From assembly GCA_000002435.2 (NCBI GenBank), contig CM018790.1: a DNA stretch of 64,000 bases, one strand, 5' to 3'. This DNA is from Giardia intestinalis. Its lineage: Eukaryota. Below, piece after piece: positions 8,800 through 58,031 of the stretch. Each line of letters opens with the position of its first letter. Within the stretch, counting starts at the first letter, position 1. A program made the position numbers and the translations under genes. Under the pieces are notes generated by a model. The model did not search any database, was not told the origin of the DNA, and worked only from the letters and a program-made list of their open reading frames with translations.

Positions 8800-10356
8800 A
8801 TGACTTTAAATCTCAGCTTCCCCCTTTACAGAATATATGACCACTACAGAGACGCCCACTACGCCTTTGGTGAAGAGATAACGAGCATCTTTGCCGGATT
8901 GGAGCCTGCCATCAAGGCCTTTGGAGTCGAACTGGATCAATACAAACTCTCGGACCCAATCAATATGGCTCCCTTTCCTGAGGTGTTGCATGCAGTGGCA
9001 ACAACAAGTAGTAGTCGCTTCAGCAGTGTATTCAAGCGGCTTGATGACCTATCCCTGATCAAGGAAATGATATCCGAGATTCGTGCCGCCAGTAAAAGTA
9101 GAGAAAGCAGAATGCAGCATACCATACAGGTCCAGCGTGATGTTTCTGTAGCTCTCCACAAGACTCCTGCTGGCTCTGTCTCGGAACCCGATCTAAAGAA
9201 GGCACTTGGTCAAAAGCCAAACCAGATCCCAGATAACCTAGAGGAGATTGTTCGTCAGAAACAAGTGGAACTGGAAAAAGAGATGCGGGCTCGTGTCGAG
9301 GTCATGGTAGAAAAGGAGAAAGAACTGCAAGAGAGGGTAGAGCAGATGGACGCAGAGATCAAGCGTCTTGAGCGACAAAACGCAGAACTTGATCAGAAAA
9401 TGAAAAAGGAGATTGATGAAGAAAGAAGTTTACGGGAAAAGGAAGCAAATCTGGCTACTGAATACGAGAAGAAAATTAAAAGCCTAGCCAACGAGCTAGC
9501 AGAGCTCCACCAACAAAAGTCCACATACGAGCAGAACTTTGCCATTAAAAAAGCAGAGTGTGAAGACGAGTTACACAGCATTCAGCAGGCGCTCTTGAAA
9601 GTCAAGACTGAATTGGCCCAGGTGTCCGCTGCGAAAACCACTACACAAACGGAGCTAGAGAGTGTAGGGAAGAAGCGACAGCAAAATGCAGAAGACATAG
9701 TCAACTTGGCATCGCAGCTCTCGGAGGCAGGCCCTCTGATAGATAGAAACATTAAGATATTTGAGTATGTGATGGACAGCGGCGAAGAGATGATATCTTC
9801 TGCAATCCATAGGTTAATGAAGACTGGATCACGTGTAGAGAGCACAGAGTTCGAGGGCACTCGAGAGTTCACCATGCCTCTCACAGAAAACTTGCGGGGG
9901 ATTGGTGAAAATAAAGATTCAACACATAGTGAGAGATGCTTGTTGCTTGATAAGCTTAAGCAATCAGATCAGGACTCGGCACAGCAACAACAACAGCAGC
10001 AAGTACCTACAGATGGAAGTGGAGCAGAAAAGAAGGCAGAGAAATACGTCATTCCCATAGAGTATGAAGCTGACTTGTCGAAGAGCCAGGTGCCGGTTGC
10101 AGACTGGGCAGTGGATGCCCTGCTCTCAAAGTGCATCAACCAGTCATCTAAGATCGATCCTGACACGGTATTTCAGCCCCCTCAACAGAAAGTCACAGTA
10201 TATGAACTCTTTGGAATAAGCAACCATCCCTATGACAACAGAACCAGGCAAACACAGAACTGGTCCACTGACAAACTAACACAAAAGGAGATAGAGCTTT
10301 ATAACGCCAAGATGGGGTTCTCTGCCCAAAGACCCCATTCCAGCTACCATAAATAG
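8800..10356 (+). CDS. Coiled-coil protein, 518 aa, hypothetical.
   Basis: Central ~250 aa of heptad-rich E/K/Q sequence, and a poly-Q tract (QQQQQQQ) near the C-terminus. Confidence 0.6.
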   Translation: MTLNLSFPLYRIYDHYRDAHYAFGEEITSIFAGLEPAIKAFGVELDQYKLSDPINMAPFPEVLHAVATTSSSRFSSVFKRLDDLSLIKEMISEIRAASKSRESRMQHTIQVQRDVSVALHKTPAGSVSEPDLKKALGQKPNQIPDNLEEIVRQKQVELEKEMRARVEVMVEKEKELQERVEQMDAEIKRLERQNAELDQKMKKEIDEERSLREKEANLATEYEKKIKSLANELAELHQQKSTYEQNFAIKKAECEDELHSIQQALLKVKTELAQVSAAKTTTQTELESVGKKRQQNAEDIVNLASQLSEAGPLIDRNIKIFEYVMDSGEEMISSAIHRLMKTGSRVESTEFEGTREFTMPLTENLRGIGENKDSTHSERCLLLDKLKQSDQDSAQQQQQQQVPTDGSGAEKKAEKYVIPIEYEADLSKSQVPVADWAVDALLSKCINQSSKIDPDTVFQPPQQKVTVYELFGISNHPYDNRTRQTQNWSTDKLTQKEIELYNAKMGFSAQRPHSSYHK

Positions 10357-10378
10357 GAGTCCCCAGCTGATTAATCGG

Positions 10379-11182
10379 CTATCTGCCCTCTGTTATAGAG
10401 GTGAGCAAATCGACATACCTTTGTATTACACTATCAACCAGCGATGCCAAGGCATCTGTGTGTAAACTCTTGGGGATAGCCTTGATCCGGTCGAGGTTCC
10501 ATGCAAAGGGAAGCATAAAGAGCTTCGCCTTCCTATGACCTCCCTTGATGCACGCAGTAGGAAGGGCATCTAAAAGAGCAGCCTGTTGTGTGGTGGGGGC
10601 ACCAATAGTAGCCGTTTGTCCGGCAACTGATGCACTCTTCTGATAGAATGTCTGAAAGTTAGTGTTCAGAGCAGACATGATGGGGTGCAATTCTGGATCC
10701 CCGTCCACTACTGCCTGATAGAACGGAATGGTTAGAAGCTCGTAGAAGGGCTGAGAGAAAAGGCACGAGGGGATGACCGCCTTTAAAGACCCCAGCCCAC
10801 TGGAGGCTCCTAGATCACATGGAATTGCAAGAAATGTCGGTAGCGAATGCAAAAACTCAAGGGGCCGAAGCTCCTCACCTTCAAAGGGATACGTAACTAG
10901 CTGAACATGCTGCTCAAGTCCTCGCTGCTTCTTAAGTTTATCTAAAATGATCCGCTGAATAGCACTGTGCTCCGGTTGCACACGAAGCAGAGAGAGCTCA
11001 ACCATCATCTTTGGGCTCTTCCGCTTTCTAAGGAAGACCGCGTCGCAAATAGCGTCTGTAAAGGTTTCCACGTGCGTCTTGACCTGTTTCTGCTTTGTAA
11101 TATCTAGCCCTGGTGGAAAGATGAGCGGGAATAGGAGAGCAGGACGCCGTTGATCCGTTGTATTCATCTTCAATATTTTCAT
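10379..11182 (-). CDS. Hypothetical protein (~267 aa).
   Basis: ORF-track start 11194 is TTG. In-frame ATGs are at 11182 and 11167, embedded in AT-rich sequence. Confidence 0.5.
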   Translation of the reverse strand: MKILKMNTTDQRRPALLFPLIFPPGLDITKQKQVKTHVETFTDAICDAVFLRKRKSPKMMVELSLLRVQPEHSAIQRIILDKLKKQRGLEQHVQLVTYPFEGEELRPLEFLHSLPTFLAIPCDLGASSGLGSLKAVIPSCLFSQPFYELLTIPFYQAVVDGDPELHPIMSALNTNFQTFYQKSASVAGQTATIGAPTTQQAALLDALPTACIKGGHRKAKLFMLPFAWNLDRIKAIPKSLHTDALASLVDSVIQRYVDLLTSITEGR

Positions 11183-23570: not shown

Positions 23571-24521
23571 ATGTCGGCAGGGAAAACGGTTGTGATTGCG
23601 CTGGGCGGCAACGCTATGCTTCAGGCCAAGGAGAAGGGGGACTATGACACTCAACGTAAGAATGTTGAGATTGCGGCCTCGGAGATTTATAAAATCCATA
23701 AGGCTGGCTATAAGGTTGTTCTCACAAGTGGTAACGGGCCGCAGGTGGGTGCCATAAAACTCCAAAACCAGGCTGCAGCAGGTGTTTCTCCAGAAATGCC
23801 CCTCCACGTCTGTGGTGCAATGTCCCAGGGATTCATCGGCTACATGATGTCTCAGGCGATGGACAACGTTTTTTGCGCGAATAACGAGCCAGCAAACTGT
23901 GTTACCTGTGTCACTCAGACATTAGTCGATCCGAAGGATCAGGCTTTCACAAATCCCACAAAGCCCGTTGGGAGGTTCTACACCGAGCAGGAGGCGAAGG
24001 ACCTCATGGCTGCAAACCCGGGAAAAATCCTCCGCGAGGATGCTGGCCGCGGCTGGCGTGTTGTCGTCCCATCTCCTCGTCCTCTTGAGATCGTGGAGTA
24101 TGGTGTCATCAAGACCCTCATTGACAACAACGTTCTTGTCATTTGTACGAATGGGGGAGGAATCCCTTGCAAGCGCGAGAACAAGGTCATCAGTGGCGTG
24201 GATGCTGTCATCGACAAGGACCTTGCAACCTCTCTTCTAGCTAAAACGCTGAACTCGGACTACCTTATGATACTTACGGACGTCCTCAACGCGTGCATCA
24301 ATTACAAGAAGCCCGATGAGAGAAAGCTCGAGGAGATCAAGCTTAGCGAGATTCTCGCCCTCGAAAAGGACGGCCACTTTGCTGCCGGATCTATGGGGCC
24401 GAAGGTCCGTGCAGCAATCGAGTTTACACAGGCAACTGGAAAAATGAGCATCATCACCTCCCTGAGCACTGCGGTGGATGCGCTCAATGGTAAATGTGGG
24501 ACCCGCATCATCAAGGATTAA
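23571..24521 (+). CDS. Carbamate kinase (arginine dihydrolase pathway), 316 aa.
   Basis: VVIALGGNAM...LTSGNGPQVG...GSMGPKVRAAIEF motifs of amino-acid-kinase-fold carbamate kinase. The length matches the known 316-aa Giardia enzyme. Confidence 0.95.
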   Translation: MSAGKTVVIALGGNAMLQAKEKGDYDTQRKNVEIAASEIYKIHKAGYKVVLTSGNGPQVGAIKLQNQAAAGVSPEMPLHVCGAMSQGFIGYMMSQAMDNVFCANNEPANCVTCVTQTLVDPKDQAFTNPTKPVGRFYTEQEAKDLMAANPGKILREDAGRGWRVVVPSPRPLEIVEYGVIKTLIDNNVLVICTNGGGIPCKRENKVISGVDAVIDKDLATSLLAKTLNSDYLMILTDVLNACINYKKPDERKLEEIKLSEILALEKDGHFAAGSMGPKVRAAIEFTQATGKMSIITSLSTAVDALNGKCGTRIIKD

Positions 24522-31378: not shown

Positions 31379-34300
31379 CTAAATTGTTAGTGGCTGGAGA
31401 GATCCATTGCCTGCGCATCCGCGCTTGCACACTGTCAGGCCGAGTGCAAGGCCAATGGCCCCGCCTACAAGAACGGCCACGCCAAGGGTGATCCCTGTGA
31501 TCGCGCCTGGGCCGAGGCTACGCTTGACCGACGAGCCTCCGCAGTAGTTCTCCAGGGGGAGATCTCCGTCCGCACAACGGAGGCAGAGGACGGCGCCTGA
31601 CCATGCCTGCGCCTGGCAGAGCCCGCACCCGTGGATGCCTGCCATCCGAAGCCCCTGGGGCGCCGTCTGGTCGCAGGGCACACAGTCCCGGGGGCCTCCG
31701 AGGGGCGTCGCCTGGAAGTACCCGTCGGCACAGGCCAGACAGCTGGCTGCCGACGAACAAGCGGCGCACAGAGGGGGGCATGCCAGGCAGCGGTCGCCTG
31801 CCAGGTGCCAGCCCCTCTTGCAGGAGGTGCAGACGCCCCCGTCGCAACGGGCGCAGCCGGCCGCGGTGCACGGGCTGCACGAGCCCCCGGAGAGCCCGTA
31901 GCCCTCCGCGCAGGCGTGGCACGTGACCCCCGCCCTTGTCAGGTCTGCTGCGCACACGGCACAGTGTGGAATTCCCGTGAAACCGTTCTGACTTGTTGCG
32001 TCATCGCACGGGCGGCAATCGGACGGAGCAGAGACAGAGCTCTGCGTCGAGTAGTATCCCTGGCTGCACGCGCTGCATGTAGTGGCAGATGTGCAGCGGA
32101 GGCAACCAGGCACGCAGGGGATGCATTCCCTGCCGCTTGTCCAGAAGCCCTCTGCCGGACAGTCGCGGGGGCACAGGAGCATCCCGTCCAGAGTCAGCGC
32201 CTTGCGTCCACTCTCGCACGCCAGACAGACGACCGGGCCCACGCGATCAGCGAGGCGGCACCTGCTGGCGCTGGAGTGGGTCGGCCTGACCTCGACGGCG
32301 TTCTCGTTGCATCCTGTGCACGCTATGCTTTGCTCCCTACAGAGGCACTGCGGAGGGCAGATCTTAGGGACGCACTCTTCGCCGTTCCAGATGTGCTCTG
32401 GGACGCAGCTGGTGCATCTCGTGCTTGTACACGTTGCACAGTTGTCGATCGCACACGGGATGCAGCTGCCGGCGGCCTCGTAGTACGCCACTGGACAGAC
32501 TGCATGGCAGGTCACCTCTGTCCCGGTCGAGAGCGCCTTGTAGCCCGGGAGACAGTCCTTGCACAGTGCGGGGCCCGCTACCTTCGGAGCCTCACAGAGC
32601 CTGCAGCCACTCACTCCCACCCAGCTGTCCCTGCCAGATGTGTCCGAGCAGGCAAGACAGGTTCCCAGGCCAGGCGTGGCGAACGTGCCAAAGTACCCCT
32701 CGGCGCACTCTTTGCACCTATCAGCCCCCATACCATCGCACGTCTTGCACGCCGGGTGGCACGCAATGCAGGACGTACTCTGGAGATAGTATCCGGCCCT
32801 GCAAGCGGTGCACGTGTTGGGGTCGTCTACGCACGCGCCGCAGTTGGGATCGGAGCAGCGCACGCAGCCCTTGTCTGTCTTGGAAAAGCCTGCCTCGCAT
32901 GCATTGCACCCGGACGTTGACTCCGTGGTGTCTCCACAAATGCTCGTCCCCGGCGCCCTTCCCTTTGTGTAGCAGGCGCCCTCGAAGAGGAACATCCCGT
33001 CTCCGCAGTGCGAGCACACACCCTTGCTGCAGATAAGTCCCTCCTTCGGCTCTGCGCACGTGCCATCCAGGGGAACCTCTCCGTCAATCAGGCAGCGCCC
33101 GCAGACGACCTGGCCGTCGACGACCGCTGCATCGCGCTCATCACAGATGCCCGTGCCGGGGTACTCGCCTGCGGAGTAGCAGCCCCCCTGGTAGAGGAAG
33201 TAGCTCCCTCGGCACGCGGTGCAGCGGCCCTTCTTGGCGTCCTTTACGCATGGACCGGCAAGTGAGCGAGCTTCTCCAGGATAGAGTGTGCAGATGCCGT
33301 CGATCGGCACGTAATCACTCGACGCGCACTGCGAGCACAGAGACCCGTCCATGACTGTGCAGGAGCCCCAACTACAGGCATCCTGCCCCACTCTTTTGCA
33401 GGGCTTCGTGCAGTATGCCCCGGCCCCGACGCCTGTCAGCGTGTAGGGCTGAATGCATTCTGTGCAGTACTTCACGTCTATCTCGCAGCTGGCGCAGTTG
33501 GAGACGGCGCAGGACATGCACGTCAGCGTCTCCTTATTGTGACGGTAGCCGGGTCTGCACCGCCGACAGGTCCCGGCTTCGCGGCCTGTTCCAAGGACCT
33601 CGCAAATCCCACTTCCAGGAGTAGTCGTGATATCATAGCAGCCTCCCTCGTGGAAGAAGTAGTTCTCGGGACATATGACGCATAAACCGCTGGAGCACGA
33701 GACACCATCTGGCACATCCTTTGTACACAGGCCATTTATTGGAAACTCTCCTGCAAGATTGCACTGCTTGCAATATGTGCGCCCTCCGACTGTCAGAAGC
33801 TCCCTACAAATGCCAGACCCGGGAGTCGCGGCAGGGTCATAGCACCCGCCCATGTAGAGCATGTATCCGCGTAGGCACCCTGTGCAGACACCCTTCCCCT
33901 TCTCGCAAACATAGTCTGTGTCATGCCCCGTGCAAGCCCCGTTGATCGGCCACTCGTCATCCAGCGCACACCTGGAACAGTACAGCGAGCCCATCGCCGT
34001 ACAGCTGCCAGCCTTACAGTTACCAGACTCTGATCCACTGTCGTTGCAGCTTTGGATACACCGCGAGCCGTCCTCGCTAGGAATGTGCTTGTCCTTGCAT
34101 CGCGTGCAGATGACCCTCTTTGGTGCCTCGCTTGGATAGCACTCTGTGCAGCCGTCAACGCCCGTGTATCCATTTGTTCCACCTGTATCATTACATAGGA
34201 TGCAGGACTCCTTTGTGGGATCGAGCAGGCCTGTGCTGTAGTACCCGGAGGCACACGATGTGCACACTCCTGCAACCGCTGAGTCGACGGCCACTGCACA

Positions 34301-37300
34301 AAGCACCGTTCCAGGCGAGCGTCCTATCTCGTAGCACCCCCCGGCGTGCAGGAAGAACCTTGGTCCGCAGCGTGTGCACGACGTGGGGCTTGGTGTGGCA
34401 GCGACACATTGCGATCTGATTGCCCTAGTGTCGGTCAGTGCAACGCATGAGCCATCGATCGGGACTTCCCCGTCTTGCTTGCATTGCTTGCAGATAGTGT
34501 ACGGGCCCAGCGTAGCTTGATGCTGGCTGTCACATATGGCAGTCCCAGCTGCTGCGCCTTTAGCATAGCAGCCCCCATAGTAGAGGAGGTGCGTGTCCTT
34601 GCAAGCCGCACACGTCCCGCTGGATGGGGTTGTACGGATGCAAGCGTCGTCATTTGCCTTGCACTTTCCGTCGATGATAACGCTGCTTAATAGCGCACAG
34701 CGGCTGCATGCAAGCGTGCCGTTGACATTGCAGTATCCTGCAGCACAGGACGTGGAAAGCAATCCAACGGGGCATTCCTCAATACATATGTTATTCCTCA
34801 GTGCAAATCTATCCTTGCAGACCTTACACCCAGTACTATCGCACTTCTTACACCCGGGTGTGCATGCAACACACGAGTTCCCACTGGCATAATACCCATC
34901 CTGGCAAGAGGCGCAGGTATTTGCCGCATTGCACGTCAAGCAGTGGAGCACGCTGCAAGCAACACACTTTTCGGCCGCAAGATAAAAGCCGTCTGCGCAT
35001 CCCGTGCATTTTGCTGCACTATCTTGACACGTCTTGCAGCTCTTATCGCACAGCTGACAGAACTCAGCAGACTCATACATCCCATCCGGACACTTAGTAA
35101 AGCATGCAACCGTTGCAGGACTTCCATCCTTGGTTATCTGGAATGACTTAACACCCTGTTTGCACGACTTGCAGATGCCATCCTCCTTGACGGTGCAGTC
35201 ATCCGAGACCTTGCACTCCCCATCAACGGGCACCTCATCCTTCTGCTTACACTTCGCACAAAACGACCCTGCGCCCGATGTCACGACATCCTGGGCGTCG
35301 CAGATGTCCCTCGCCTCGAACGACCCCGCTTCATAGCAGCCACCCTTGTACTTGATGTATCCGTGGGCGCAGTATTTGCAGGTGCCATTAGCTTGTTCAT
35401 ATTGTATGCACACGCCTGCGGCCACTGAAGCACACACGCCGTTGACTGGGCCCTCGGCGTCAGCAGCGCACTGGGAGCAGTAGAACGTGCCCAGGACATC
35501 ACACTTGTCCTTTCTGCACCTGTGCTCCTTGGGGTCTGCCTCTGCCTCAACGCACGTTTGCACGCACTCCGTTCCCCCATTCATTGGTCTGTAGAACTGC
35601 TCGCAGGCAACACAGACCAGGAGTCCGTTGGAAACCTCGCAGCTCTTGCAGTGGGGTATGCCCTTCAGCGTGTCGCTGTTCTCTGTGCACGGAACACACG
35701 AGTCGCTGACACTTGAGCGGTCGGGGGGCGGGTAGTATCCATCCTTGCAGGTGCTGCAAATGCCGTCATGCACTCCAAGGTCTTTGCAAACCGTGTTTCC
35801 AGGAGCCCTTTCTGCCGAGACGCAGCTCCCAAGCATCAGGAAGTAGTCGCTGCTGCAATAGTAGCACGTGCCAGTGGGGACGCGGTGCAGAGTGCACACC
35901 GCAGCCTCTGTGCTGCCGGGCGTAAGGCAGTGTCCATCGACCAGAAGGTCTGTCACGACTCCGCACTGGAAGCAGTATAGCGTGTTGCCTATTAGGTTAT
36001 GCCTAACGCACGCTTTACTCCCGGGAGGCGCAGCTGGATTGTAGCACCCGCCCATGTAGAGGATGTGGGTCGTCGCACACGACGCACACGTATCATTTTG
36101 TTGTGTTTGCGGTGTGCAAACATTACTATTAGTGGAGGTACACCTTCCATCCACGAGATAATCTGACTCTAGCGAACACCTAGAACAATACTTCCCGTTG
36201 AGCACGTTGCAGTAGCCCTTCAAACACTTTCCTGTCGCCTTGCTGCTCTCCTCTACTTCTGGACAGGATTCTTCGCATCGATTCTGCTCGTTCAAGATGT
36301 ACCTATCTGCGCAGTCTGTACAGGTAGCCGGTCCTGCTGCTTTAGGAGGCAGGCATGTATCGCAGTGATCTATTCCAGTATACCCGTTGCTTCCAACTGT
36401 ATCGTTGCACGCAATGCATGAGTCTATCGCCGTGCTAGCCACCGGGTTCTTGAAGTACGATTTGCCGCACTCCTCACAGACCCCGGCCCCGACCCTGGCG
36501 CAGATATCTGAGTGTGATTCCTGCCGCATGCATATTCCCCTGTGCATAAAGTAGCCGGACCCGCATGCAGTGCACTTGCTGCTTGTGCACGTATTTCCGT
36601 CAAGTTCTGCTGTGCATGACCCATCGACAGGGTACTCGCCCGCATCATTACACGCTTTGCAATAGGCAGTGCCCTTTTCTACTATCTGACTATCTTGTTT
36701 GCAGATCTCGATCACTGGCTGGGTAATCTTATAGCACCCGCCGTAGTATAGCAGGTGGGTTGCGGCGCAGCGAAGGCATGTTCCCGAAGAGGCATTCAGA
36801 CATATGCGGGCCCGTTCTCCTCCCAACGAGCAAACTCCATCTATGGGGACCTCGTTTGCCTCGCTGCATCTGCTGCAAAAGGTGTTGTCTCGAACCGTGC
36901 ATCCTCCGTAGATACACTTCCCTGGGCCGATGCCCTCCTCACAGACTTTTTCGCAGACCTTCGACCCCTTTGTGTTGTCCTTGAGGAAGTATCCCGAGTT
37001 GCAGCTGGTGCAGGAGGCTGCATCTCCGGAACAGGCCCGGCAGTTGCTAACCTCGCAGACCTTGCATCCGTTGCCCGATGACATGTATCCATCTTCGCAC
37101 TTGGAACAGGTGCTGGTGCTGTCGTCTTCATCTTTGCAGATAAGCATGCCAGGCATGACACCCTTTCGGTAGCATCCCCCGTTGTATAGAAAGTACCCCG
37201 ATGCGCAGGATGTGCAGGCGCCATCTTGTGCACTGTGCCCATCTAGGGTGGCTGTGCATATGCCGTCAACAGGACATTCTGCAGATGTGGCGCACCTTGA

Positions 37301-38929
37301 ACAATAAGTGTTGGAAATGGTATTGCAGTGTCCCGTTTTGCACTGTTCCGCCCCCTCAGCCCCTTCATGACAAACCTGCACACAGCTGTTGCCCTTGAGG
37401 ACATGCCCAGTGGTGCACTTTGTGCAGATAGGCATGGTCCCGCTGGGCTTGGGGCTGCACCTCTCGCAATTTGCGACCCCTACGATTGTGATAGTGGCCA
37501 CCGGATCGTTGCAGGGCTTGCAGTAGCCGCGCCCCCCGCTGAAAACCTCAAAGTAGACATCCTTTTTGCAGGACAGGCAGCTGTCGGCAGCACCGCTACT
37601 GCATGTTTCACAGGACTGGTGGCATGGTGCGCACGTGCTGCCACTGCGGTAGTACTTGTTCCTGCACACTTTGCAGCCACCCGTGCCGTCCAGCTCGTCG
37701 CATATGACGTTCCCGGGCGACGTCTCGTTTGAGTAGCAGCCGCCTTTGTAGAGGAAGGCTTTCGCTCCACAGCTTGCACATGTCGTGTCCGTGGGTGTGA
37801 CCGCAGAGCCCCGGGACGTCACACAGCCCACTGCTGCCACCTCTTGCGCGTCGTACCTCAAACAGACCCCTGAGACAGGCACGAAGCCCGGCTGCGCACA
37901 TCGGACACAGACCGTACGCTCCTGGACCTCGGAGGTCTCTGCGCACACCTCCTGCCCCAGAGGTTCTGCTACGCTATAGCAGCCTCCCTGAAAGAGCAAA
38001 TGCCCCTTGGCACAGACACTACAGGTGCCGTTGGGGGGATCGAATGGGGTGCAGATCTTCTTGTCATCTGCAGAGACGCATTTCCCATCAATAAGAAGGT
38101 CGCTACTGCTAGCGCACTGAGAGCAGTATCTGTTATTCAGCGCGGTGCACATGCTTGTTTTGCATTTGGTTGCCTGGCTATCGTGCTCATCACATGTCTG
38201 CGTACATCTTTTGGCAGTAAGGTCGTACGAGTACTTGCTCACGCATACACTGCAATCCTCTGGTCTTTCGCCTGTGCATGTGGCACAGTTGTCAGCGCAA
38301 GCGGTGCACTTACCCTCTTTAATGAAGTACTTTTCTTTACATAGAGTGCAAGTGATCTCGTCGGAGTTTTGAGAGCACTGTGCACAAGCTGTTACTCCAC
38401 CATCTGCAGCAGAGCACTCCTTACATTCGTTATTCTTGAGAAACCGATCTGACCGGCAACTGAGGCAGGACTGAGCAGTGTTGCTTGTGCACGTGGCGCA
38501 TGTGGAGTGGCAGGGCTTGCACTGGTGAATGCTGGATGTCGTGTCTAGAAAGAATCCATCTACACACAGCGTGCAGTATCCTGATGTAGCAGTTCTGCAT
38601 ATGCGGTTTCCGGGGCTATAGAGCACGTTATAGCACCCTCCCTCGTGGAGAAAGTAGCTTCCGTCGCGGCAAAGTTCGCACTTCCTGGCAGAGGTACTCA
38701 GCGGAGCCCCTACGCTGCCTCCGCAACCAGATGCTACTGCCCTGGGGTCAGTGAGGGGGATGCACACCCCGTTAATAGGCACCTCTCCGGGGATTGCACA
38801 CTCGGCGCAATATTGCCCGTCCAAAACTTTACAATTGTTTTCTGCACAGATAGCTGTATCTCGATCAGAGCCTGCAGCTTGGATGCATATCGAAAGAGCC
38901 GCGCCTATCAGCTCAAGAAAAAGAATCAT
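31379..38929 (-). CDS. Giant VSP-like high-cysteine membrane protein (HCMP), 2516 aa.
   Basis: Signal peptide, more than 13 GGCY motifs, CXXC pairs throughout, a single C-terminal TM, and a tail CKRGCAGNGSLQPLTI that is not the VSP CRGKA tail. The ectodomain consists of about 8 repeated ~300-aa modules. Confidence 0.85.
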   Translation of the reverse strand: MILFLELIGAALSICIQAAGSDRDTAICAENNCKVLDGQYCAECAIPGEVPINGVCIPLTDPRAVASGCGGSVGAPLSTSARKCELCRDGSYFLHEGGCYNVLYSPGNRICRTATSGYCTLCVDGFFLDTTSSIHQCKPCHSTCATCTSNTAQSCLSCRSDRFLKNNECKECSAADGGVTACAQCSQNSDEITCTLCKEKYFIKEGKCTACADNCATCTGERPEDCSVCVSKYSYDLTAKRCTQTCDEHDSQATKCKTSMCTALNNRYCSQCASSSDLLIDGKCVSADDKKICTPFDPPNGTCSVCAKGHLLFQGGCYSVAEPLGQEVCAETSEVQERTVCVRCAQPGFVPVSGVCLRYDAQEVAAVGCVTSRGSAVTPTDTTCASCGAKAFLYKGGCYSNETSPGNVICDELDGTGGCKVCRNKYYRSGSTCAPCHQSCETCSSGAADSCLSCKKDVYFEVFSGGRGYCKPCNDPVATITIVGVANCERCSPKPSGTMPICTKCTTGHVLKGNSCVQVCHEGAEGAEQCKTGHCNTISNTYCSRCATSAECPVDGICTATLDGHSAQDGACTSCASGYFLYNGGCYRKGVMPGMLICKDEDDSTSTCSKCEDGYMSSGNGCKVCEVSNCRACSGDAASCTSCNSGYFLKDNTKGSKVCEKVCEEGIGPGKCIYGGCTVRDNTFCSRCSEANEVPIDGVCSLGGERARICLNASSGTCLRCAATHLLYYGGCYKITQPVIEICKQDSQIVEKGTAYCKACNDAGEYPVDGSCTAELDGNTCTSSKCTACGSGYFMHRGICMRQESHSDICARVGAGVCEECGKSYFKNPVASTAIDSCIACNDTVGSNGYTGIDHCDTCLPPKAAGPATCTDCADRYILNEQNRCEESCPEVEESSKATGKCLKGYCNVLNGKYCSRCSLESDYLVDGRCTSTNSNVCTPQTQQNDTCASCATTHILYMGGCYNPAAPPGSKACVRHNLIGNTLYCFQCGVVTDLLVDGHCLTPGSTEAAVCTLHRVPTGTCYYCSSDYFLMLGSCVSAERAPGNTVCKDLGVHDGICSTCKDGYYPPPDRSSVSDSCVPCTENSDTLKGIPHCKSCEVSNGLLVCVACEQFYRPMNGGTECVQTCVEAEADPKEHRCRKDKCDVLGTFYCSQCAADAEGPVNGVCASVAAGVCIQYEQANGTCKYCAHGYIKYKGGCYEAGSFEARDICDAQDVVTSGAGSFCAKCKQKDEVPVDGECKVSDDCTVKEDGICKSCKQGVKSFQITKDGSPATVACFTKCPDGMYESAEFCQLCDKSCKTCQDSAAKCTGCADGFYLAAEKCVACSVLHCLTCNAANTCASCQDGYYASGNSCVACTPGCKKCDSTGCKVCKDRFALRNNICIEECPVGLLSTSCAAGYCNVNGTLACSRCALLSSVIIDGKCKANDDACIRTTPSSGTCAACKDTHLLYYGGCYAKGAAAGTAICDSQHQATLGPYTICKQCKQDGEVPIDGSCVALTDTRAIRSQCVAATPSPTSCTRCGPRFFLHAGGCYEIGRSPGTVLCAVAVDSAVAGVCTSCASGYYSTGLLDPTKESCILCNDTGGTNGYTGVDGCTECYPSEAPKRVICTRCKDKHIPSEDGSRCIQSCNDSGSESGNCKAGSCTAMGSLYCSRCALDDEWPINGACTGHDTDYVCEKGKGVCTGCLRGYMLYMGGCYDPAATPGSGICRELLTVGGRTYCKQCNLAGEFPINGLCTKDVPDGVSCSSGLCVICPENYFFHEGGCYDITTTPGSGICEVLGTGREAGTCRRCRPGYRHNKETLTCMSCAVSNCASCEIDVKYCTECIQPYTLTGVGAGAYCTKPCKRVGQDACSWGSCTVMDGSLCSQCASSDYVPIDGICTLYPGEARSLAGPCVKDAKKGRCTACRGSYFLYQGGCYSAGEYPGTGICDERDAAVVDGQVVCGRCLIDGEVPLDGTCAEPKEGLICSKGVCSHCGDGMFLFEGACYTKGRAPGTSICGDTTESTSGCNACEAGFSKTDKGCVRCSDPNCGACVDDPNTCTACRAGYYLQSTSCIACHPACKTCDGMGADRCKECAEGYFGTFATPGLGTCLACSDTSGRDSWVGVSGCRLCEAPKVAGPALCKDCLPGYKALSTGTEVTCHAVCPVAYYEAAGSCIPCAIDNCATCTSTRCTSCVPEHIWNGEECVPKICPPQCLCREQSIACTGCNENAVEVRPTHSSASRCRLADRVGPVVCLACESGRKALTLDGMLLCPRDCPAEGFWTSGRECIPCVPGCLRCTSATTCSACSQGYYSTQSSVSAPSDCRPCDDATSQNGFTGIPHCAVCAADLTRAGVTCHACAEGYGLSGGSCSPCTAAGCARCDGGVCTSCKRGWHLAGDRCLACPPLCAACSSAASCLACADGYFQATPLGGPRDCVPCDQTAPQGLRMAGIHGCGLCQAQAWSGAVLCLRCADGDLPLENYCGGSSVKRSLGPGAITGITLGVAVLVGGAIGLALGLTVCKRGCAGNGSLQPLTI

Positions 38930-53003: not shown

Positions 53004-54008
53004 ATGCACCTACGGACTTGTCTTACGGCTGGAACCACTGTTCTCGAGAATCTGCGTGGGAAGAATAGTATCCTGCTGAGCACAAGCAATGGAGTGGCTT
53101 TGTTGGGAGACGGCGTATCATTGTTTGAAGCCAGCTGGGATCCAGATGGGCGAAGGGATATTCGTCTCACACGCATGCCTGTAGCAGAGCACTATGGCAT
53201 GTCCAATGGCGTGGCAACACTTGTGCCAACACTACGTGTGGAGGTGGTCTCCATAGAGGACAACAAGTTGTCTCCGCTTCAATTGCTTCAGAACCTTTCG
53301 GAAGCGCCATTAGCAGAGACAGAAACTATCCAGATCATAGATAGCGAGTCTGACGTTGCTGGAGAGAACCGTTTCACTGTGGTGGTCACCGGGCCACCCA
53401 TCCTTCCCGTTCTTGGATGCGTCCTGCAGCACAAGAAGAACTTGTGGATAGCTCTTTACAGAAAAGGCTTTCATTGCCTTCACTTGTTTCGTTATTCCAA
53501 GTGTGAAGCATCCAAGAGTCAGGGTGAGAGTGGACTTGCACTGGTTCCTTTTGACCCTTCTACCTTGACGCTCCCAGCACCTATACACGGCTTGGCGCCA
53601 CTGCACAATTTTGGCGCCTTTATTATTGCTACGTGTGAGAGATCGTCATCAACACTCTATATGAAGCCCAACACATCCTTTGAGGTGAACATTCATAGCT
53701 GTCTTCTCCCAAATGGTGACGCAGACAAGGAATTGGCACCAAAAAAAGTCTCAAGCACAACTCTCTCGACCTGCGAAAGTATCGCTGCTGACCATGCACA
53801 CCAAGCATTCTCACTGATCACACAATTTGCTACGGATCCCAATCTTTCTGCCCAGGAAAAGACCTCTTTAATTACAGCAATGTCTAGTGTTTATGACTCA
53901 GCGTTGAGGGCTGCCTGTGCTGGCAGACAAGTCCTGGACGCCCAGTTAAAATGTTATCCAGAGAACTTTGGTTCAACGCCATTAGAAGGCACGACTATGC
54001 CTTTGTAA
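53004..54008 (+). CDS. Hypothetical protein, 334 aa.
   Basis: ATG ORF. Its last 58 nt overlap the start of the downstream ankyrin gene in a different frame. Confidence 0.5.
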   Translation: MHLRTCLTAGTTVLENLRGKNSILLSTSNGVALLGDGVSLFEASWDPDGRRDIRLTRMPVAEHYGMSNGVATLVPTLRVEVVSIEDNKLSPLQLLQNLSEAPLAETETIQIIDSESDVAGENRFTVVVTGPPILPVLGCVLQHKKNLWIALYRKGFHCLHLFRYSKCEASKSQGESGLALVPFDPSTLTLPAPIHGLAPLHNFGAFIIATCERSSSTLYMKPNTSFEVNIHSCLLPNGDADKELAPKKVSSTTLSTCESIAADHAHQAFSLITQFATDPNLSAQEKTSLITAMSSVYDSALRAACAGRQVLDAQLKCYPENFGSTPLEGTTMPL

Positions 54009-55654
54009 ACGCTAATTTAGATAAGTTCAAGCGTGTTCGTGATGATCTAGGCTTTACAGGGCTTATGTACGCTGCTTGGACAAATGACATGGAGATGGTG
54101 AGACTGCTTGCAGATGACGAGCTCAACCTTAGCAACGGCCAGGGAAACACTGCTACTATAATTGCAGCCCTTAATGGGAGCGTTGATGCCTGTCAGTATC
54201 TTCTAACGCGAGAAACTATTGGGCTCAATGAGTTTGGGCACACGCCTCTCACATTAGCTGCAGCCGAGGGAGTCACGGCTACGATACCTGTGCTCCTTCC
54301 TTACTACGGAACCATGAAGGATGCAAACGGCTGGACGCCTCTGGATCACGCCGCAAGTAACGGACACATAGATGCAGTCAAGCTTCTCATTGCCGATCTT
54401 TCCCCACGCATTCTCTCCTTGGATTCAGCTATAGAGCATGCCATGCTTTCGGGAAACAAGCATGTTGTGGAGCTTCTAGCGCTTTGCAAAGACACTGTAA
54501 CTAGTTCTCCTTGCATTACATGTAACTACTATCGAACTCTTTGGGTCTCACAACTATCTGCTCCAACCTCTCGTAAAGATGAAGAAAAAGCACCCTTGGG
54601 AGACCAACCGTCTGGTCATGGACCGTTGCATACAGAGTGCCTCGATATATCTCTAGCAAGGATGGAGTGGAGCCACGTTTCTCAGATATGTAGCGAAAGG
54701 TTAGCAAGTGTCCGCAGCACTCGTAAAGGTCTAGCTACCCTCGACCGATACCTCTCTGCTCTACTTGCCCTTTGGGGCTCTTCTGGGCCCGAAGCCCCAC
54801 TCTACCAACCAGACTCTTCCCTTCACGGCATAACGCCCTTGATGGTAGCAGCATCCAGTGGACGTGCAGATCTAGTAGAAACTCTCATTACCGAATATCT
54901 AGGTAAGAGGAATAGCCAAGGGCTGACGGCTCTCATGATAGCTGCCCGGAGAGGGCATCTAGACTGCGTGAAGTTGCTCGTTCCAGAGGCAAAAAAGGTA
55001 GACATTGACGGCTATACCGCTCTCATGCATGCTGTCATGGCAAACGCAATGAGTGTGGTTGACTATCTTGCTGATTATGAATGTGGCATTCGCTGTCCTG
55101 ATGGAAACACGGCATTGCTGCTTGCAGCAAAGTTAGGTCACCCCAGAGTTCCTCCGTCACTGATTAAAGCAGAGGCAAAGATAAAAGATACTGATGGTAA
55201 CGTTGCCCTCATATACGCTGCTTTAGATAGAAACAAGCCGTTGATATCTCTGCTCTGTGAAGCAGAAGCAGGCATCTCTAACTATATGGGGCTCACAGCG
55301 CTCATGGCAGCTGCATATACAAACGATTGCGATACAATATTGTTGACTCTGTCGACTGGGAAGAAAAAAAGGATGCATGGAGGATTTACTGCCCTGATGA
55401 TTGCTGCCTGTCTTAACAACAGAGAGGCAGTCGAAGCCCTCGTAGGCCACGAGGCATTCTGTGTTACGGACACTCACTTTAGCGCTCTATTACTGGCCGT
55501 TGTATGCGGTTCGGTGGACGCGTCCAGGACTCTTGGACTTGTTGAGATGACCATACTGTCTCCTCATGGTCACAACGCGGTGACGCTTAGCGCTAACGGT
55601 CCATGTGGCTCTATAATATCGGATATATGTGATGGGATCAAGAACTCTGCTTAA
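53951..55654 (+). CDS. Ankyrin-repeat protein ('protein 21.1' type), 567 aa.
   Basis: N-terminal LWFNAIRRHDYAFVNANL...GFTGLMYAA followed by more than 12 ANK repeats. Confidence 0.8.
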   Translation: MLSRELWFNAIRRHDYAFVNANLDKFKRVRDDLGFTGLMYAAWTNDMEMVRLLADDELNLSNGQGNTATIIAALNGSVDACQYLLTRETIGLNEFGHTPLTLAAAEGVTATIPVLLPYYGTMKDANGWTPLDHAASNGHIDAVKLLIADLSPRILSLDSAIEHAMLSGNKHVVELLALCKDTVTSSPCITCNYYRTLWVSQLSAPTSRKDEEKAPLGDQPSGHGPLHTECLDISLARMEWSHVSQICSERLASVRSTRKGLATLDRYLSALLALWGSSGPEAPLYQPDSSLHGITPLMVAASSGRADLVETLITEYLGKRNSQGLTALMIAARRGHLDCVKLLVPEAKKVDIDGYTALMHAVMANAMSVVDYLADYECGIRCPDGNTALLLAAKLGHPRVPPSLIKAEAKIKDTDGNVALIYAALDRNKPLISLLCEAEAGISNYMGLTALMAAAYTNDCDTILLTLSTGKKKRMHGGFTALMIAACLNNREAVEALVGHEAFCVTDTHFSALLLAVVCGSVDASRTLGLVEMTILSPHGHNAVTLSANGPCGSIISDICDGIKNSA

Positions 55655-56600
55655 AGAGACTGCGAACCAATTTTTTCTTCTCCGCTGGGTCAATTGGGTG
55701 CCTGGCGTCTTCATACCCACCGGGTGGTATGCGACTACTATATTGTGGCGAGTCTCCATGAAAATCGGATCCCATTGAGGCGGTCAGGCCATGCCTGTCA
55801 CAGTACTGCTTCAAGTGGAGGATGTTCTTCTGGGTATGGCTAGGGTGATAAACCTCAAGATGCTTCATTCCGCTTTGAACAGCCTCCTCAAGGACCTTGA
55901 CGGTAGCATCCCAATCATACTTAAGACAAGCATGAGCAAGGACAGGGACTCCTCCCAGCTGAATTGCTCTTGTAATAGCGTACCGAAGAGGAAGCATTTC
56001 CTTTTTAAGTGATTCTATCGGCTCTTTTGCCAGATATTTATCAAATGACTCTCTTACCGTTGTGCAGTAGCCCTTGTGAATTAGGTAATTTGCAATGTGT
56101 GGTCTCCCAATGGTCCCGTCTGCTGTACTGGTCTTTTGGTTTATCCTATTGAGGGTGCAAAACTCGTCCCACGAGAGATCAAGGCCGTAGGTTGATGAGA
56201 GAACTTCGAGGCAAAGCTTTGCTCTTTCAATCCTTTTCTCGCGCAATAGAGATAGTTCTGTTTCTAGTTCCTTGAGGCCTGCAATGTCAGCCATGGTAGG
56301 GGGGTCTTGCTTGGTTAGGGAGAGGCGCTTGAAGGCCCTTTCGGTTCCCATTGCAAATCGCGGGAAATAAACGAGCAAGTGGGACTCTTTGCCGAGGAGG
56401 TTCTCCGTGGTGATCTCGACTCCGGGAAGGAAGACTAGGTCTGGAAGATTGAGGGCCTCGAGGCGGAAGTACGCCTGCAGTGTGTCGTGGTCTGTGAGCG
56501 CGCAAAGGGCCGTATCGTTGGAGTATGCCATCTCGAGAACGGTCTCCGGAGGGTGCTCCCCGTCGGAGAGCTGCGTGTGCATGTGCAGGTCGATATGCAT
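55638..56600 (-). CDS. PHP-domain metal-dependent phosphoesterase (bacterial TrpH/YciV/RNase AM-like), 320 aa.
   Basis: IDLHMHTQLSDG, ALTDHDT, LPGVEIT, GGVPVLAHA and ASMGSDFHG reproduce the PHP His/Asp metal-binding motifs in the TrpH order. Confidence 0.85.
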   Translation of the reverse strand: MHIDLHMHTQLSDGEHPPETVLEMAYSNDTALCALTDHDTLQAYFRLEALNLPDLVFLPGVEITTENLLGKESHLLVYFPRFAMGTERAFKRLSLTKQDPPTMADIAGLKELETELSLLREKRIERAKLCLEVLSSTYGLDLSWDEFCTLNRINQKTSTADGTIGRPHIANYLIHKGYCTTVRESFDKYLAKEPIESLKKEMLPLRYAITRAIQLGGVPVLAHACLKYDWDATVKVLEEAVQSGMKHLEVYHPSHTQKNILHLKQYCDRHGLTASMGSDFHGDSPQYSSRIPPGGYEDARHPIDPAEKKKLVRSLFKQSS

Positions 56601-56663
56601 TTAAACGCCTGCAGACTATCCATATAAATATAATGCGCATCCTGTAGACTGGCCCGCGTCCAG

Positions 56664-56736
56664 GGTTTCATAGTGTAGTTGGTTAGCACATGGGACTCTG
56701 AATCCCATAACCCCGGTTCGAATCCGGGTGAAACCG
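56664..56736 (+). tRNA. tRNA-Gln (anticodon CUG), 73 nt.
   Basis: Acceptor stem GGTTTCA/TGAAACC. D-arm with GG. Anticodon stem TGGGA/TCCCA with loop CTCTGAA. T-arm CCCGG-TTCGAAT-CCGGG. Near-identical to eukaryotic tRNA-Gln-CTG. Confidence 0.9.
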
Positions 56737-56737
56737 C

Positions 56738-56741
56738 TTTT
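56738..56741 (+). terminator. Pol III T4 terminator directly after the tRNA.
   Basis: TTTT begins 2 nt after the discriminator base. Confidence 0.5.
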
Positions 56742-56752
56742 CCCCGGCGAAA

Positions 56753-57139
56753 ATGGGGGGTGCGACGCGCAAGAAGAACAAGACGAACCACCGCGAAGTC
56801 AGCCGCAGGGTGAAGACCAAGCGCCGCACAAAGGACGTCGACGAGATCCTCGAGATGCTCAGCCCGGAGAACGTGGAGAAGATCAAGAACAGGGACCCCG
56901 ACCCCCTGCTCCCCGGGGACGGCATGCACTTCTGCATCATCTGCGACAGGTACTTCATCAGTGCAGAGGCGCTGGAGACACACAAGGCCACCGGGAAGCA
57001 CAAGTTCCAGGTCAAGCGCGTCAGGGAAGGCGGCATCTCCCCCAAGGAGACAGAGCTCTTTGCCCGCCGCGGGCTTCCCGATAACGGGCGGAAGATTGTA
57101 AGAGATGAGAACGGTGAGCTGATAGGATTTACTGATTGA
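56753..57139 (+). CDS. ZNF593/Bud20-type C2H2 zinc-finger ribosome-biogenesis protein, 128 aa.
   Basis: KTKRRTKDVDEI...DPDPLLPGDGMHFCIICDRYFISAEALETHKATGKHK parallels ZNF593 (KAKRRRPDLDEI...[35 protein letters not shown]). Confidence 0.8.
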   Translation: MGGATRKKNKTNHREVSRRVKTKRRTKDVDEILEMLSPENVEKIKNRDPDPLLPGDGMHFCIICDRYFISAEALETHKATGKHKFQVKRVREGGISPKETELFARRGLPDNGRKIVRDENGELIGFTD

Positions 57140-58031
57140 GCTGTGCCCTCAGCTCTGTCTCGTACTGTTTGTAGTATTTCCTATACCTCTCCACTGTTGT
57201 CGAGTATGGAATTTTCCCACAAGAGCAAGCGTATTCAACAAAGTCGTCCGCGTGCTTCGTAAAGGAGTTCATAATGCACGATGAGTAAATCACGAAAATG
57301 GAGACCTCTGCAGCTGTTATCAGGTAAAGAGGGATGGGAGTGGCGAAGTATGCTGCAAACTCTACGTCGTGAACCGTTTTTATCTGCCTATCGAGGTCGT
57401 CCTGTGAAAAGACAAGGGGGGACTGCTCTTTTTCTAGAAAGTTACAATACGTCTTGAGCATGCAGAGAGACAGCCCAACGGCAATGTCGCGGTAGAGATC
57501 GAGCTTCGTTGCTGCAATGAACTGCCGCTCCATTTGTTGAAACTCGGCATGAACTCGATCCTCCTTCTTGATCTGGAGCGTCAGGCCATAGCACTCTAAA
57601 ACATGACCAACATCTCTGAAGCCAAAGAAGCGCGCCATCAGTGAGGAGTCCTTGAGACGCGCTATGCTATTTGCTTTGTACATCTGATGGAAGGTGGCTA
57701 TACGCGTGTGTATGACTTCTAGACTGTCGATAGTGACGTTGAGGGTCCGCAGCGTGTGGATAGCAACGATGATAGCTACCTGTCCCCTGACCTTCGTATC
57801 ACTGAGGAACTGGTCCCTCATGTGCTTCTTGCTTTCTGAGTTGTGATCGTCAATGTAGAAGAAGCGGCGGAGAAGCGTTGCAGAGCGCATGGTGGACTCT
57901 CGTGTGAGAGTAGTGAAAAGGTGAAAGGGTCCCTCGAAGAGGGCCTTGATTGCATAGCACGTGTTGATAAGAAGCTCGTCATCTTTGATAGTGATAACTG
58001 GCGGTATGCGGTGGTTTATCTGGGAAATCAT
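57129..58031 (-). CDS. Hypothetical protein, ~300 aa.
   Basis: ORF-track start 58292 is TTG, and the apparent N-terminal 87 aa would run through a simple repeat. The first ATG is at 58031. Confidence 0.5.
   Translation of the reverse strand: MISQINHRIPPVITIKDDELLINTCYAIKALFEGPFHLFTTLTRESTMRSATLLRRFFYIDDHNSESKKHMRDQFLSDTKVRGQVAIIVAIHTLRTLNVTIDSLEVIHTRIATFHQMYKANSIARLKDSSLMARFFGFRDVGHVLECYGLTLQIKKEDRVHAEFQQMERQFIAATKLDLYRDIAVGLSLCMLKTYCNFLEKEQSPLVFSQDDLDRQIKTVHDVEFAAYFATPIPLYLITAAEVSIFVIYSSCIMNSFTKHADDFVEYACSCGKIPYSTTVERYRKYYKQYETELRAQLNQ

Follow-up and report, generated by a model that had tools for sequence, protein, structure and literature searches.

We describe a gene for a bacterial-type PHP-family phosphoesterase in a 64,000-nucleotide stretch of the Giardia intestinalis genome (NCBI GenBank assembly GCA_000002435.2, contig CM018790.1), hereafter called the window, which we take to be G. 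duodenalis assemblage A and, within it, the WB-like sub-assemblage A1. The gene is an intact open reading frame (ORF) on the minus strand (55638..56600), which runs from an ATG to a TGA codon and encodes a protein of 320 amino acids (aa). The findings as a whole are best explained by a functional nuclear Giardia gene that encodes a three-metal PHP enzyme of the TrpH type and that diplomonads gained through one old transfer from a prokaryote, an explanation to which we assign a probability of about 0.75. A preliminary description of the window, made from its sequence, had put the gene forward as a candidate for lateral transfer. This reading is supported here, and is refined to an old acquisition that has already been catalogued in the literature.

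By name and length, the gene corresponds to GL50803_8929 of Giardia isolate WB, which is listed as "Metal-dependent phosphoesterase, putative" with the orthologue GMRT_14351 in the orthologue table of the G. muris genome paper (PMC7641422 supplement).

Family assignment and predicted structure

Evidence from sequence, profile and predicted fold supports the placement of the Giardia protein in the branch of PHP phosphoesterases that contains TrpH/YciV (RNase AM) and Cv1693, with a COG0613-type architecture that includes an insertion domain. This agrees with the bacterial TrpH/YciV-like family named in the preliminary description. Searches of PDB sequences with phmmer recovered Vibrio cholerae RNase AM (9etk), Cv1693 (2yb1), BAD_1165 (3e0f) and Escherichia coli RNase AM (7ug9) at E-values of 1e-18 to 1e-12. 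A profile built from eight diplomonad sequences matched 3e0f, 9etk, 2yb1 and 7ug9 at E-values of 1e-29 to 7e-37. Database relatives of the protein carry the names "metal-dependent phosphoesterase TrpH" or "3',5'-nucleoside bisphosphate phosphatase".

The AlphaFold2 (AF2) model, which was computed from an alignment of 60 sequences, has a predicted local distance difference test score (pLDDT) of 91.7 and a predicted template modelling score (pTM) of 0.90. When the model was compared with the PDB by Foldseek, the top four matches were V. cholerae RNase AM, BAD_1165, Cv1693 and E. coli RNase AM (E-values of 2e-17 to 1e-10), and all listed matches at E ≤ 0.001 were PHP proteins, namely RNase AM, Cv1693, the PHP domains of Pol III alpha and TM0559. 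No other family appeared above E 1e-8 in the sequence, profile or fold searches of the PDB.

Active site, substrate pocket and diplomonad-specific insertions

The metal ligands characteristic of the PHP superfamily (HxH, D, H, E, H, H, DxH) are present in this order in the Giardia protein as H6, H8, D13, H38, E62, H74, H223, D279 and H281, so that the full set claimed for the 320-aa product is confirmed residue by residue. The N-terminal HxH...D motif (H6, H8, D13; 56562..56585, minus strand), of which H8 is the second histidine of HxH, is invariant in eight diplomonad sequences and in the alignment of 60 mixed sequences. It is followed by H38 (56487-56489), E62 (56415-56417) and H74 (56379-56381), which together span 56379..56489 on the minus strand, and by the C-terminal ligands H223 (55932-55934), D279 (55764-55766) and H281 (55758-55760), which span 55758..55934 on the same strand; all nine ligands were checked at the codon level. 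In the 60-sequence alignment, H6, H8, D13, H38, E62, H223, D279, H281, R166 and F186 are invariant, while H74, R123 and R126 are conserved in at least 90%; among the diplomonads, H74 differs only in P0123, one of the proteins introduced below. Eight of the nine ligands, H8 being the exception, map to RNase AM His13, Asp20, His45, Glu72, His83, His198, Asp255 and His257.

The insertion domain contributes a predicted substrate pocket (56043..56234, minus strand) consisting of R123, R126 and R166, which would contact the 5'-phosphate, and F186, which would stack against the base. The three arginines align with R99, R102 and R134 of Cv1693, and by offset all four residues align with R107, R110, R141 and F161 of RNase AM. 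The metal ligands of RNase AM, and the Arg107/Arg110/Arg141/Phe161 pocket that holds a 5'-phosphonucleotide in RNase AM and Cv1693, have been described previously (PMC9410882). The insertion-domain helices at residues 103-138 and 166-190 are confidently modelled by AF2.

The diplomonad proteins also carry insertions of their own, which were located in an alignment of 168 sequences, 13 of the diplomonad type and 155 prokaryotic or unnamed. Insertion 1 (residues 80-102, PRFAMGTERAFKRLSLTKQDPPT; 56295..56363, minus strand) lies at the start of the insertion domain and is modelled with a pLDDT of 91-95. It adds approximately 16-25 residues with the motif FPxLxxG after the HLLVYFP strand, and is found in all the diplomonad sequences and in ~0% of the 155 others. 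Insertion 2 (residues 150-157, LNRINQKT; 56130..56153, minus strand) is located just before the GRPH motif and is modelled with lower confidence (pLDDT of 71-78). Its roughly eight residues (L150-T157, NxINxxT) are found in Giardia, G. muris, P0122, P0123 and the P0126/P0272 group of Hexamita, and are absent from the prokaryotic sequences. A third insertion of 3-4 residues in the C-terminal helix is essentially unoccupied in the 155 other sequences.

Conservation within Giardia

Many assemblies contain a protein identical to that of the window. P0001, an annotated protein of G. duodenalis (assembly GCA_000498715.1, presumably of sub-assemblage DH/A2), is 98% identical to the window protein; the eight amino-acid differences include none at catalytic residues, and the omega value of 0.46 is close to those of the neighbouring genes. 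Additional G. duodenalis-type orthologues share 85% (P15), 79%, 76% and 73% identity with the window protein. Comparison with the most distant of these, which is 73% identical in amino acids and 74% in nucleotides, gave a dN/dS of 0.11 with a dS of 1.46, showing that the PHP gene is under purifying selection.

The gene is embedded in its surroundings. Its 3'-end overlaps that of a convergent ankyrin-repeat gene tail to tail by exactly 17 bp (55638..55654), ending in TGA on one side and TAA on the other, as had been described beforehand. The same 17-bp overlap is found in the 73%-identical lineage (L001; 6947..6963), where the gene order is also that of the window (Sec7-like, hypothetical, PHP, ankyrin, ..., V-ATPase C, Dopey), and both the overlap and the synteny recur in A1 and A2 assemblies. 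The overlap in itself is unremarkable, because gene overlaps are frequent in the compact Giardia genome.

The base composition of the gene is that of its host. Its G+C content at third codon positions (GC3) is 0.561, with a span of 0.42-0.79 across 26 long ORFs of the window, and its synonymous-codon profile has a correlation of 0.85 with that of the pooled rest of the window, which is typical at such a gene length. The codon-usage chi-square per codon of 0.18 is usual for ORFs of ~300 aa. The earlier remark that the codon composition resembles that of the neighbouring genes is therefore upheld.

Relatives in other diplomonads and beyond

To find more distant relatives, 1.84 billion cluster representatives were scanned exhaustively with HMMER. 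Three full-length, single-stretch matches follow the G. duodenalis group, namely G. muris TNJ28199.1 (39% identity), P0122 (35%) and P0123 (36%). The G. muris orthologue is located on a 2.4-Mb contig. P0122 is a 331-aa orthologue encoded at 10001..10996 of a 27-kb Logan contig (SRR31929897; L007), where its densely packed neighbours are eukaryotic (TMEM208/SND2, NTM1-type methyltransferase, protein kinase and cathepsin); its host is probably an unsequenced diplomonad or a close relative. P0123 originates from a JGI metagenome. The free-living Hexamita inflata has at least four paralogue groups (P0126, P0271, P0272 and P0165, with further members), some truncated to 183-196 aa, and of these the P0165 group is highly divergent and without insertion 2. 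A single copy is present in Giardia, where our searches found no other gene of the TrpH type.

Beyond this diplomonad-type set, the scan yielded a continuum of 270-300-aa sequences with 33-40% identity, which are prokaryotic or unnamed metagenomic TrpH proteins. No prokaryotic or unnamed match exceeds 40% identity to the Giardia protein. Named relatives belong to Firmicutes, Actinobacteria, Chloroflexi, Deltaproteobacteria, Spirochaetes, Asgard and Euryarchaeota, and many more are unnamed metagenomic sequences. Archaeal homologues occur at similar levels of identity, including a protein from an Asgard metagenome-assembled genome (P0062, 32%) and many from Bathyarchaeia. The top 150 matches of the scan were considered, 29 of which were checked by name, and among the checked matches of the exhaustive and profile searches no eukaryote outside the diplomonads was identified, one mussel-labelled entry aside. 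This entry, P0259 (Potamilus streckersoni KAK3584271.1), is a 390-aa fusion of a response regulator and a PHP domain in the assembly of a freshwater mussel; it is probably a bacterial contaminant of the assembly and not a gene of the animal. A peptide-pattern search for related loci, based on an alignment of eight sequences, recovered Treponema, Deferribacteres and Bathyarchaeia at 25-33% identity, a biased set that is uninformative on the donor. Among plants, Arabidopsis AT2G13840 is a TrpH-like gene, on which our literature search gave no usable information.

Three lines of sequence evidence agree in pointing to a single origin of the PHP gene in diplomonads. In a neighbour-joining (NJ) tree of 168 sequences, the 13 diplomonad-type sequences form one group, with a bootstrap value of only 67%. 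The insertions described above are common to them. Finally, when G. duodenalis was left out of a profile, which then comprised only G. muris, P0122, P0123 and Hexamita, the G. duodenalis proteins scored 288-294 bits, compared with 207 for the best prokaryote.

A probable old acquisition from a prokaryote

The most likely course of events is a single entry of the gene from a prokaryote into diplomonads before Giardiinae and Hexamitinae split. One old transfer would account for its presence across both subgroups, for the prokaryotic nature of the other identifiable close relatives and for the lack of any other eukaryote among the checked matches. That the acquisition would be old is suggested both by its being common to Giardiinae and Hexamitinae and by a composition that is fully host-like. 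After entry, the gene would have drifted to the composition of its host, and its insertion domain would have gained lineage-specific insertions.

This reading has a precedent in the diplomonad metabolic reconstruction of Jiménez-González & Andersson 2020 (PMC7762791 Table S1). There, RXN-16009/EC 3.1.3.97, a PHP-type nucleoside bisphosphate phosphatase, is classified as "Ancestral (LGT candidate)", where LGT stands for lateral gene transfer and a candidate is defined by a majority of prokaryotic hits. The reaction is listed as present in G. intestinalis WB and GS, G. muris, S. salmonicida and Trepomonas PC1 and as absent from Kipferlia, and the BLAST taxa of the row comprise 2 eukaryotes, 10 archaea and 397 bacteria (PMC7762791). 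The PHP gene was not found among the LGT genes listed in Alsmark 2013 or in the papers on Trepomonas and on the GS genome. Full-text literature searches returned nothing on GL50803_8929 or on a Giardia PHP phosphoesterase, the only link being the EC 3.1.3.97 row (PMC7762791). The preliminary description had also called the family "essentially prokaryotic". This status is supported rather than proven: those close relatives outside the diplomonad-type set that could be identified are prokaryotic, but two eukaryotic taxa are counted in the published row.

Our finding thus confirms earlier work, because the gene carries an annotation already and the published table had placed its reaction among the ancestral LGT candidates of diplomonads. 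The present analysis adds a check of the active site residue by residue, a structural model of high confidence and evidence of purifying selection, together with diplomonad-specific insertions as common markers of a single acquisition and a reason to question the EC 3.1.3.97 label. The gene becomes one more well-documented prokaryote-derived enzyme of diplomonads, with an acquisition that would predate the split between Giardia and Hexamita.

Proposed mechanism and substrate

By homology, the Arg123/Arg126/Arg166 pocket and Phe186 of the insertion domain would hold a 5'-phosphorylated nucleotide, while the three-metal centre formed by the nine ligands would activate a water molecule. The activated water would then cut the phosphoester on the 3' oxygen of the bound nucleotide. 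With a terminal 3'-phosphate as substrate, the reaction would be that of EC 3.1.3.97 (pNp -> pN + Pi). With a 3'-linked nucleotide, the enzyme would act as a 5'->3' nano- or di-ribonuclease (pNpN... -> pN + pN...). Cv1693 is known in complex with AMP and phosphate (PMC9410882; PDB structures), and RNase AM has been described as a ribonuclease that acts 5'->3' on RNA, oligoribonucleotides and dinucleotides (PMC7261194; PMC11528712). The Giardia protein begins with MHIDLH, as bacterial proteins do, and this lack of an N-terminal extension suggests a cytosolic location.

Giardia has no sulfate activation genes (PMC6801973). The usual source of 3'-phosphoadenosine 5'-phosphate (pAp), which is 3'-phosphoadenosine 5'-phosphosulfate (PAPS), is therefore missing, and PAPS-derived pAp is no obvious substrate. 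For this reason we favour, as the main role of the enzyme, the removal of pNp nucleotides and of short RNA fragments with a 5'-phosphate; degradation of such RNA is no less likely than hydrolysis of pAp. In an organism without PAPS metabolism, the EC 3.1.3.97 label is accordingly questionable.

A more far-reaching proposal, which we consider rather doubtful, is that the diplomonad PHP clade could be the main or only enzyme that degrades di- and oligoribonucleotides at the end of RNA decay, in replacement of an Orn/REXO2-type oligoribonuclease. A 2011 in-silico inventory of the RNA-decay machinery of Giardia lists two Xrn homologues (PMC3282835), and a search of its text for relevant terms brought up neither the PHP gene nor an oligoribonuclease. 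If the proposal is true, the enzyme would be an essential bacterial-type drug target without a counterpart in the mammalian host. More generally, the gene would gain practical weight only if its product is essential, for example as the nanoRNase or pNp phosphatase of Giardia. In that case it could be a selective drug target, because to our knowledge mammals have no TrpH-type PHP enzyme.

Alternative explanations

Several results weigh against an active TrpH-type enzyme of prokaryotic descent, or against parts of this explanation. A check against the Pfam PHP domain (PF02811), proposed in the preliminary description, did match residues 4-44 of the Giardia protein, but at 24.7 bits it fell just below the gathering score of 26.4, and the precomputed Pfam PHP matches of the orthologues are labelled "faint" or "weak". 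Because this match is sub-threshold and limited to the N-terminus, the family assignment leans on NCBIfam, the PDB sequence and profile matches and the fold search. The best NCBIfam match, NF041577 (3',5'-nucleoside bisphosphate phosphatase), scored 113.2 bits against an equivalog cut-off of 400, and NF047791 (RNase RNM / RNase AM) scored 98.9 bits against a cut-off of 375. Since both scores fall so far short, the protein cannot be credited with either of the two named activities; it is apparently an active member of the TrpH/YciV/Cv1693 branch that cannot be placed in either characterised equivalog. In the active site, Giardia has A222-H223-A224-C225-L226-K227 in place of bacterial AHPGR, so that the arginine through which RNase AM touches the scissile phosphate at its metal centre (Arg201; PMC9410882) is not conserved; other diplomonads have AHP(L/G)(L/I) at this site. 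The signal of the NJ tree is weak, with distances saturated at ~1.2-1.5 and a diplomonad stem branch of 0.046. Its internal diplomonad topology is not resolved, G. muris standing apart from G. duodenalis, and long-branch attraction among fast-evolving eukaryotic sequences is not fully dismissed by the tree alone. The nearest neighbours of the diplomonad group are unnamed metagenomic proteins. For these reasons (saturation, a short stem and unnamed neighbours), no donor lineage can be named; the phylogeny suggested beforehand thus recovered the diplomonads as one group but did not single out a sister group. In addition, the match between the EC 3.1.3.97 row of Table S1 and GL50803_8929 is not confirmed, although no other TrpH-type gene was found in Giardia in our searches. 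The Spironucleus and Trepomonas sequences reported there (PMC7762791) were not recovered in our exhaustive or profile searches.

The gene could instead have descended vertically from the last eukaryotic common ancestor, being retained in diplomonads and lost in nearly all other eukaryotes, with no diplomonad-specific transfer at all. The archaeal homologues at similar identity, the failure to single out a donor clade and the fully host-like composition would all be compatible with such a history. It would nevertheless require many independent losses, which is unparsimonious. Moreover, the sister fornicate Kipferlia is listed as lacking the gene, only 2 of the ~409 BLAST taxa of the published row are eukaryotes (PMC7762791), and no eukaryote outside the diplomonads was identified among the checked matches. 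We therefore regard vertical descent as improbable. Bacterial contamination or an assembly chimera, whose sole support is that the closest non-diplomonad relatives are prokaryotic, is already refuted. Within a single contig, eukaryotic genes lie on either side of the gene, one of them overlapping it by 17 bp, and this arrangement is repeated in at least three independent lineages and in many assemblies, the gene order and the overlap being identical in the independent A1, A2 (DH) and 73%-identical-lineage assemblies. It also has host-like codon usage and shares at most 40% identity with any prokaryotic or unnamed match, and its G. muris orthologue is part of a 2.4-Mb contig. The preliminary description was thus right to consider contamination unlikely.

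As regards function, pAp inhibits Xrn enzymes, and the protein could be specifically a pAp phosphatase that shields the Xrn exonucleases in place of the Hal2/BPNT1-type enzyme of other eukaryotes. This is the main functional alternative to the broader clearance role preferred here, though a tentative one. In its favour, the best NCBIfam model is the 3',5'-nucleoside bisphosphate phosphatase (113 vs 99 bits for RNase RNM), the residues with which Cv1693 binds AMP and phosphate are conserved, EC 3.1.3.97 is part of the diplomonad metabolic reconstruction (PMC7762791) and Giardia has two Xrn homologues (PMC3282835). However, the main source of pAp is missing along with the sulfate activation genes (PMC6801973), and the NF041577 score is far below the equivalog cut-off. 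Characterised members of the family carry both activities, so that sequence by itself does not discriminate between a pAp phosphatase and a ribonuclease. A catalytically dead relic of the PHP fold, reused for binding or scaffolding, might explain the lack of RNase AM Arg201 and the lineage-specific insertions in the insertion domain. We judge it very improbable, given that the nine ligands and the pocket are kept, and are mostly invariant, across diplomonads that have diverged by more than 60% (H74 differing in P0123 only), and given the dN/dS of 0.11.

Genomic neighbourhood and other features of the window

The convergent ankyrin-repeat neighbour is a 567-aa ORF (53951..55654, plus strand) with a Pfam match to Ank_2 at 207 bits. 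Its start is overlapped by 58 bp (53951..54008) by a hypothetical 334-aa ORF on the same strand (53004..54008). On the other side, the 5'-end of the PHP gene faces a tRNA-Gln gene and a ZNF593-type gene, as noted before. The tRNA-Gln(CTG) gene (56664..56737, plus strand) was predicted by ARAGORN, is the sole tRNA gene across the whole window and is a neighbour only, 63 bp upstream of the PHP start codon. The ZNF593/Bud20-like gene is a 128-aa ORF (56753..57139, plus strand) with a zf-C2H2_jaz domain in Pfam.

The 63-bp upstream intergenic region of the PHP gene (56601..56663, minus strand; tatatttatatg...gcgtttaaATG) is AT-rich by the ATG. Giardia promoters are short and AT-rich, and this stretch would accordingly resemble a normal Giardia promoter/initiator region.

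Only 16 bp separate the end of the tRNA-Gln(CTG) gene from the start codon of the ZNF593-like ORF (56753), which has the same orientation. A Pol III tRNA gene is therefore wedged between two Pol II genes with nearly no spacer (56664..57139, with the divergent PHP gene 63 bp away). The order of protein-coding genes around it was found again in other G. duodenalis assemblies. The end of the ZNF593-like ORF (57139) overlaps the 3'-end of a convergent ORF (57129..58031/58292, minus strand) by 11 bp.

Elsewhere in the window, a 2516-aa ORF (31379..38929, minus strand) contains 15 stretches that match Pfam VSP (Giardia variant-specific surface protein), of the high-cysteine membrane protein type. 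It coincides with a GC-rich part of the window (GC of 0.56-0.62 at 32-38 kb), with values of 0.57 at second codon positions (GC2) and 0.66 for GC3. An ORF of 316 aa (23571..24521, plus strand) belongs to the amino-acid kinase family (PF00696, 86 bits). It resembles carbamate kinase, a prokaryote-type enzyme of the arginine dihydrolase pathway, and could be a second prokaryotic-type gene in the window. The most deviant codon usage belongs to a 267-aa ATP_bind_1 (GPN-loop GTPase-type) ORF (7961..8764, minus strand), with a GC3 of 0.79 and a chi-square per codon of 0.50 (vs 0.02-0.23 in the other ORFs of the window), which may reflect high expression.

Comparison with known enzymes

The other diplomonad genes labelled "Ancestral (LGT candidate)" (PMC7762791) resemble the PHP gene in occurring across Giardiinae and Hexamitinae, in having mostly prokaryotic homologues and in their host-like composition. 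There is no difference in kind between them, except that EC 3.1.3.97 has a table entry only, with no dedicated tree or biochemistry in the papers examined.

One of the closest known systems is Cv1693, a 3',5'-nucleoside bisphosphate phosphatase of the PHP type (EC 3.1.3.97) from Chromobacterium violaceum (PDB 2yb1/2yb4). It shares with the Giardia model a distorted (beta/alpha)7 PHP barrel with an inserted helical domain, the nine positions of the trinuclear metal site and three pocket arginines (Arg99/Arg102/Arg134, corresponding to Giardia R123/R126/R166). The two proteins differ in that they are ~26% identical in the Foldseek structural alignment, the Giardia protein exceeds Cv1693 by ~30 aa and has two diplomonad-specific insertions in its insertion domain, and AHPGR is replaced by AHACLK.

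RNase AM (YciV/TrpH; 7ug9, 9etk) is a 5'->3' exoribonuclease/diribonuclease of E. coli, V. cholerae and P. aeruginosa, and 9etk is the best Foldseek match to the Giardia model (E 2e-17, template modelling scores of 0.68/0.77). Its eight named ligands and its Arg107/Arg110/Arg141/Phe161 pocket are all matched in Giardia, whereas Arg201 is not kept. RNase AM is known to act in the 5' maturation of bacterial rRNAs and as a back-up of Orn, roles for which no counterpart has been demonstrated in Giardia, an organism with 5'->3' exonucleases of the Xrn type. BAD_1165 of Bifidobacterium adolescentis (3e0f/3o0f), a "putative metal-dependent phosphoesterase" from structural genomics, is the best PDB profile match (E 6.8e-37). 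It shares 24% identity with the Giardia protein, is of uncharacterised function and is without the diplomonad insertions. The alignment between the two spans most of the insertion domain.

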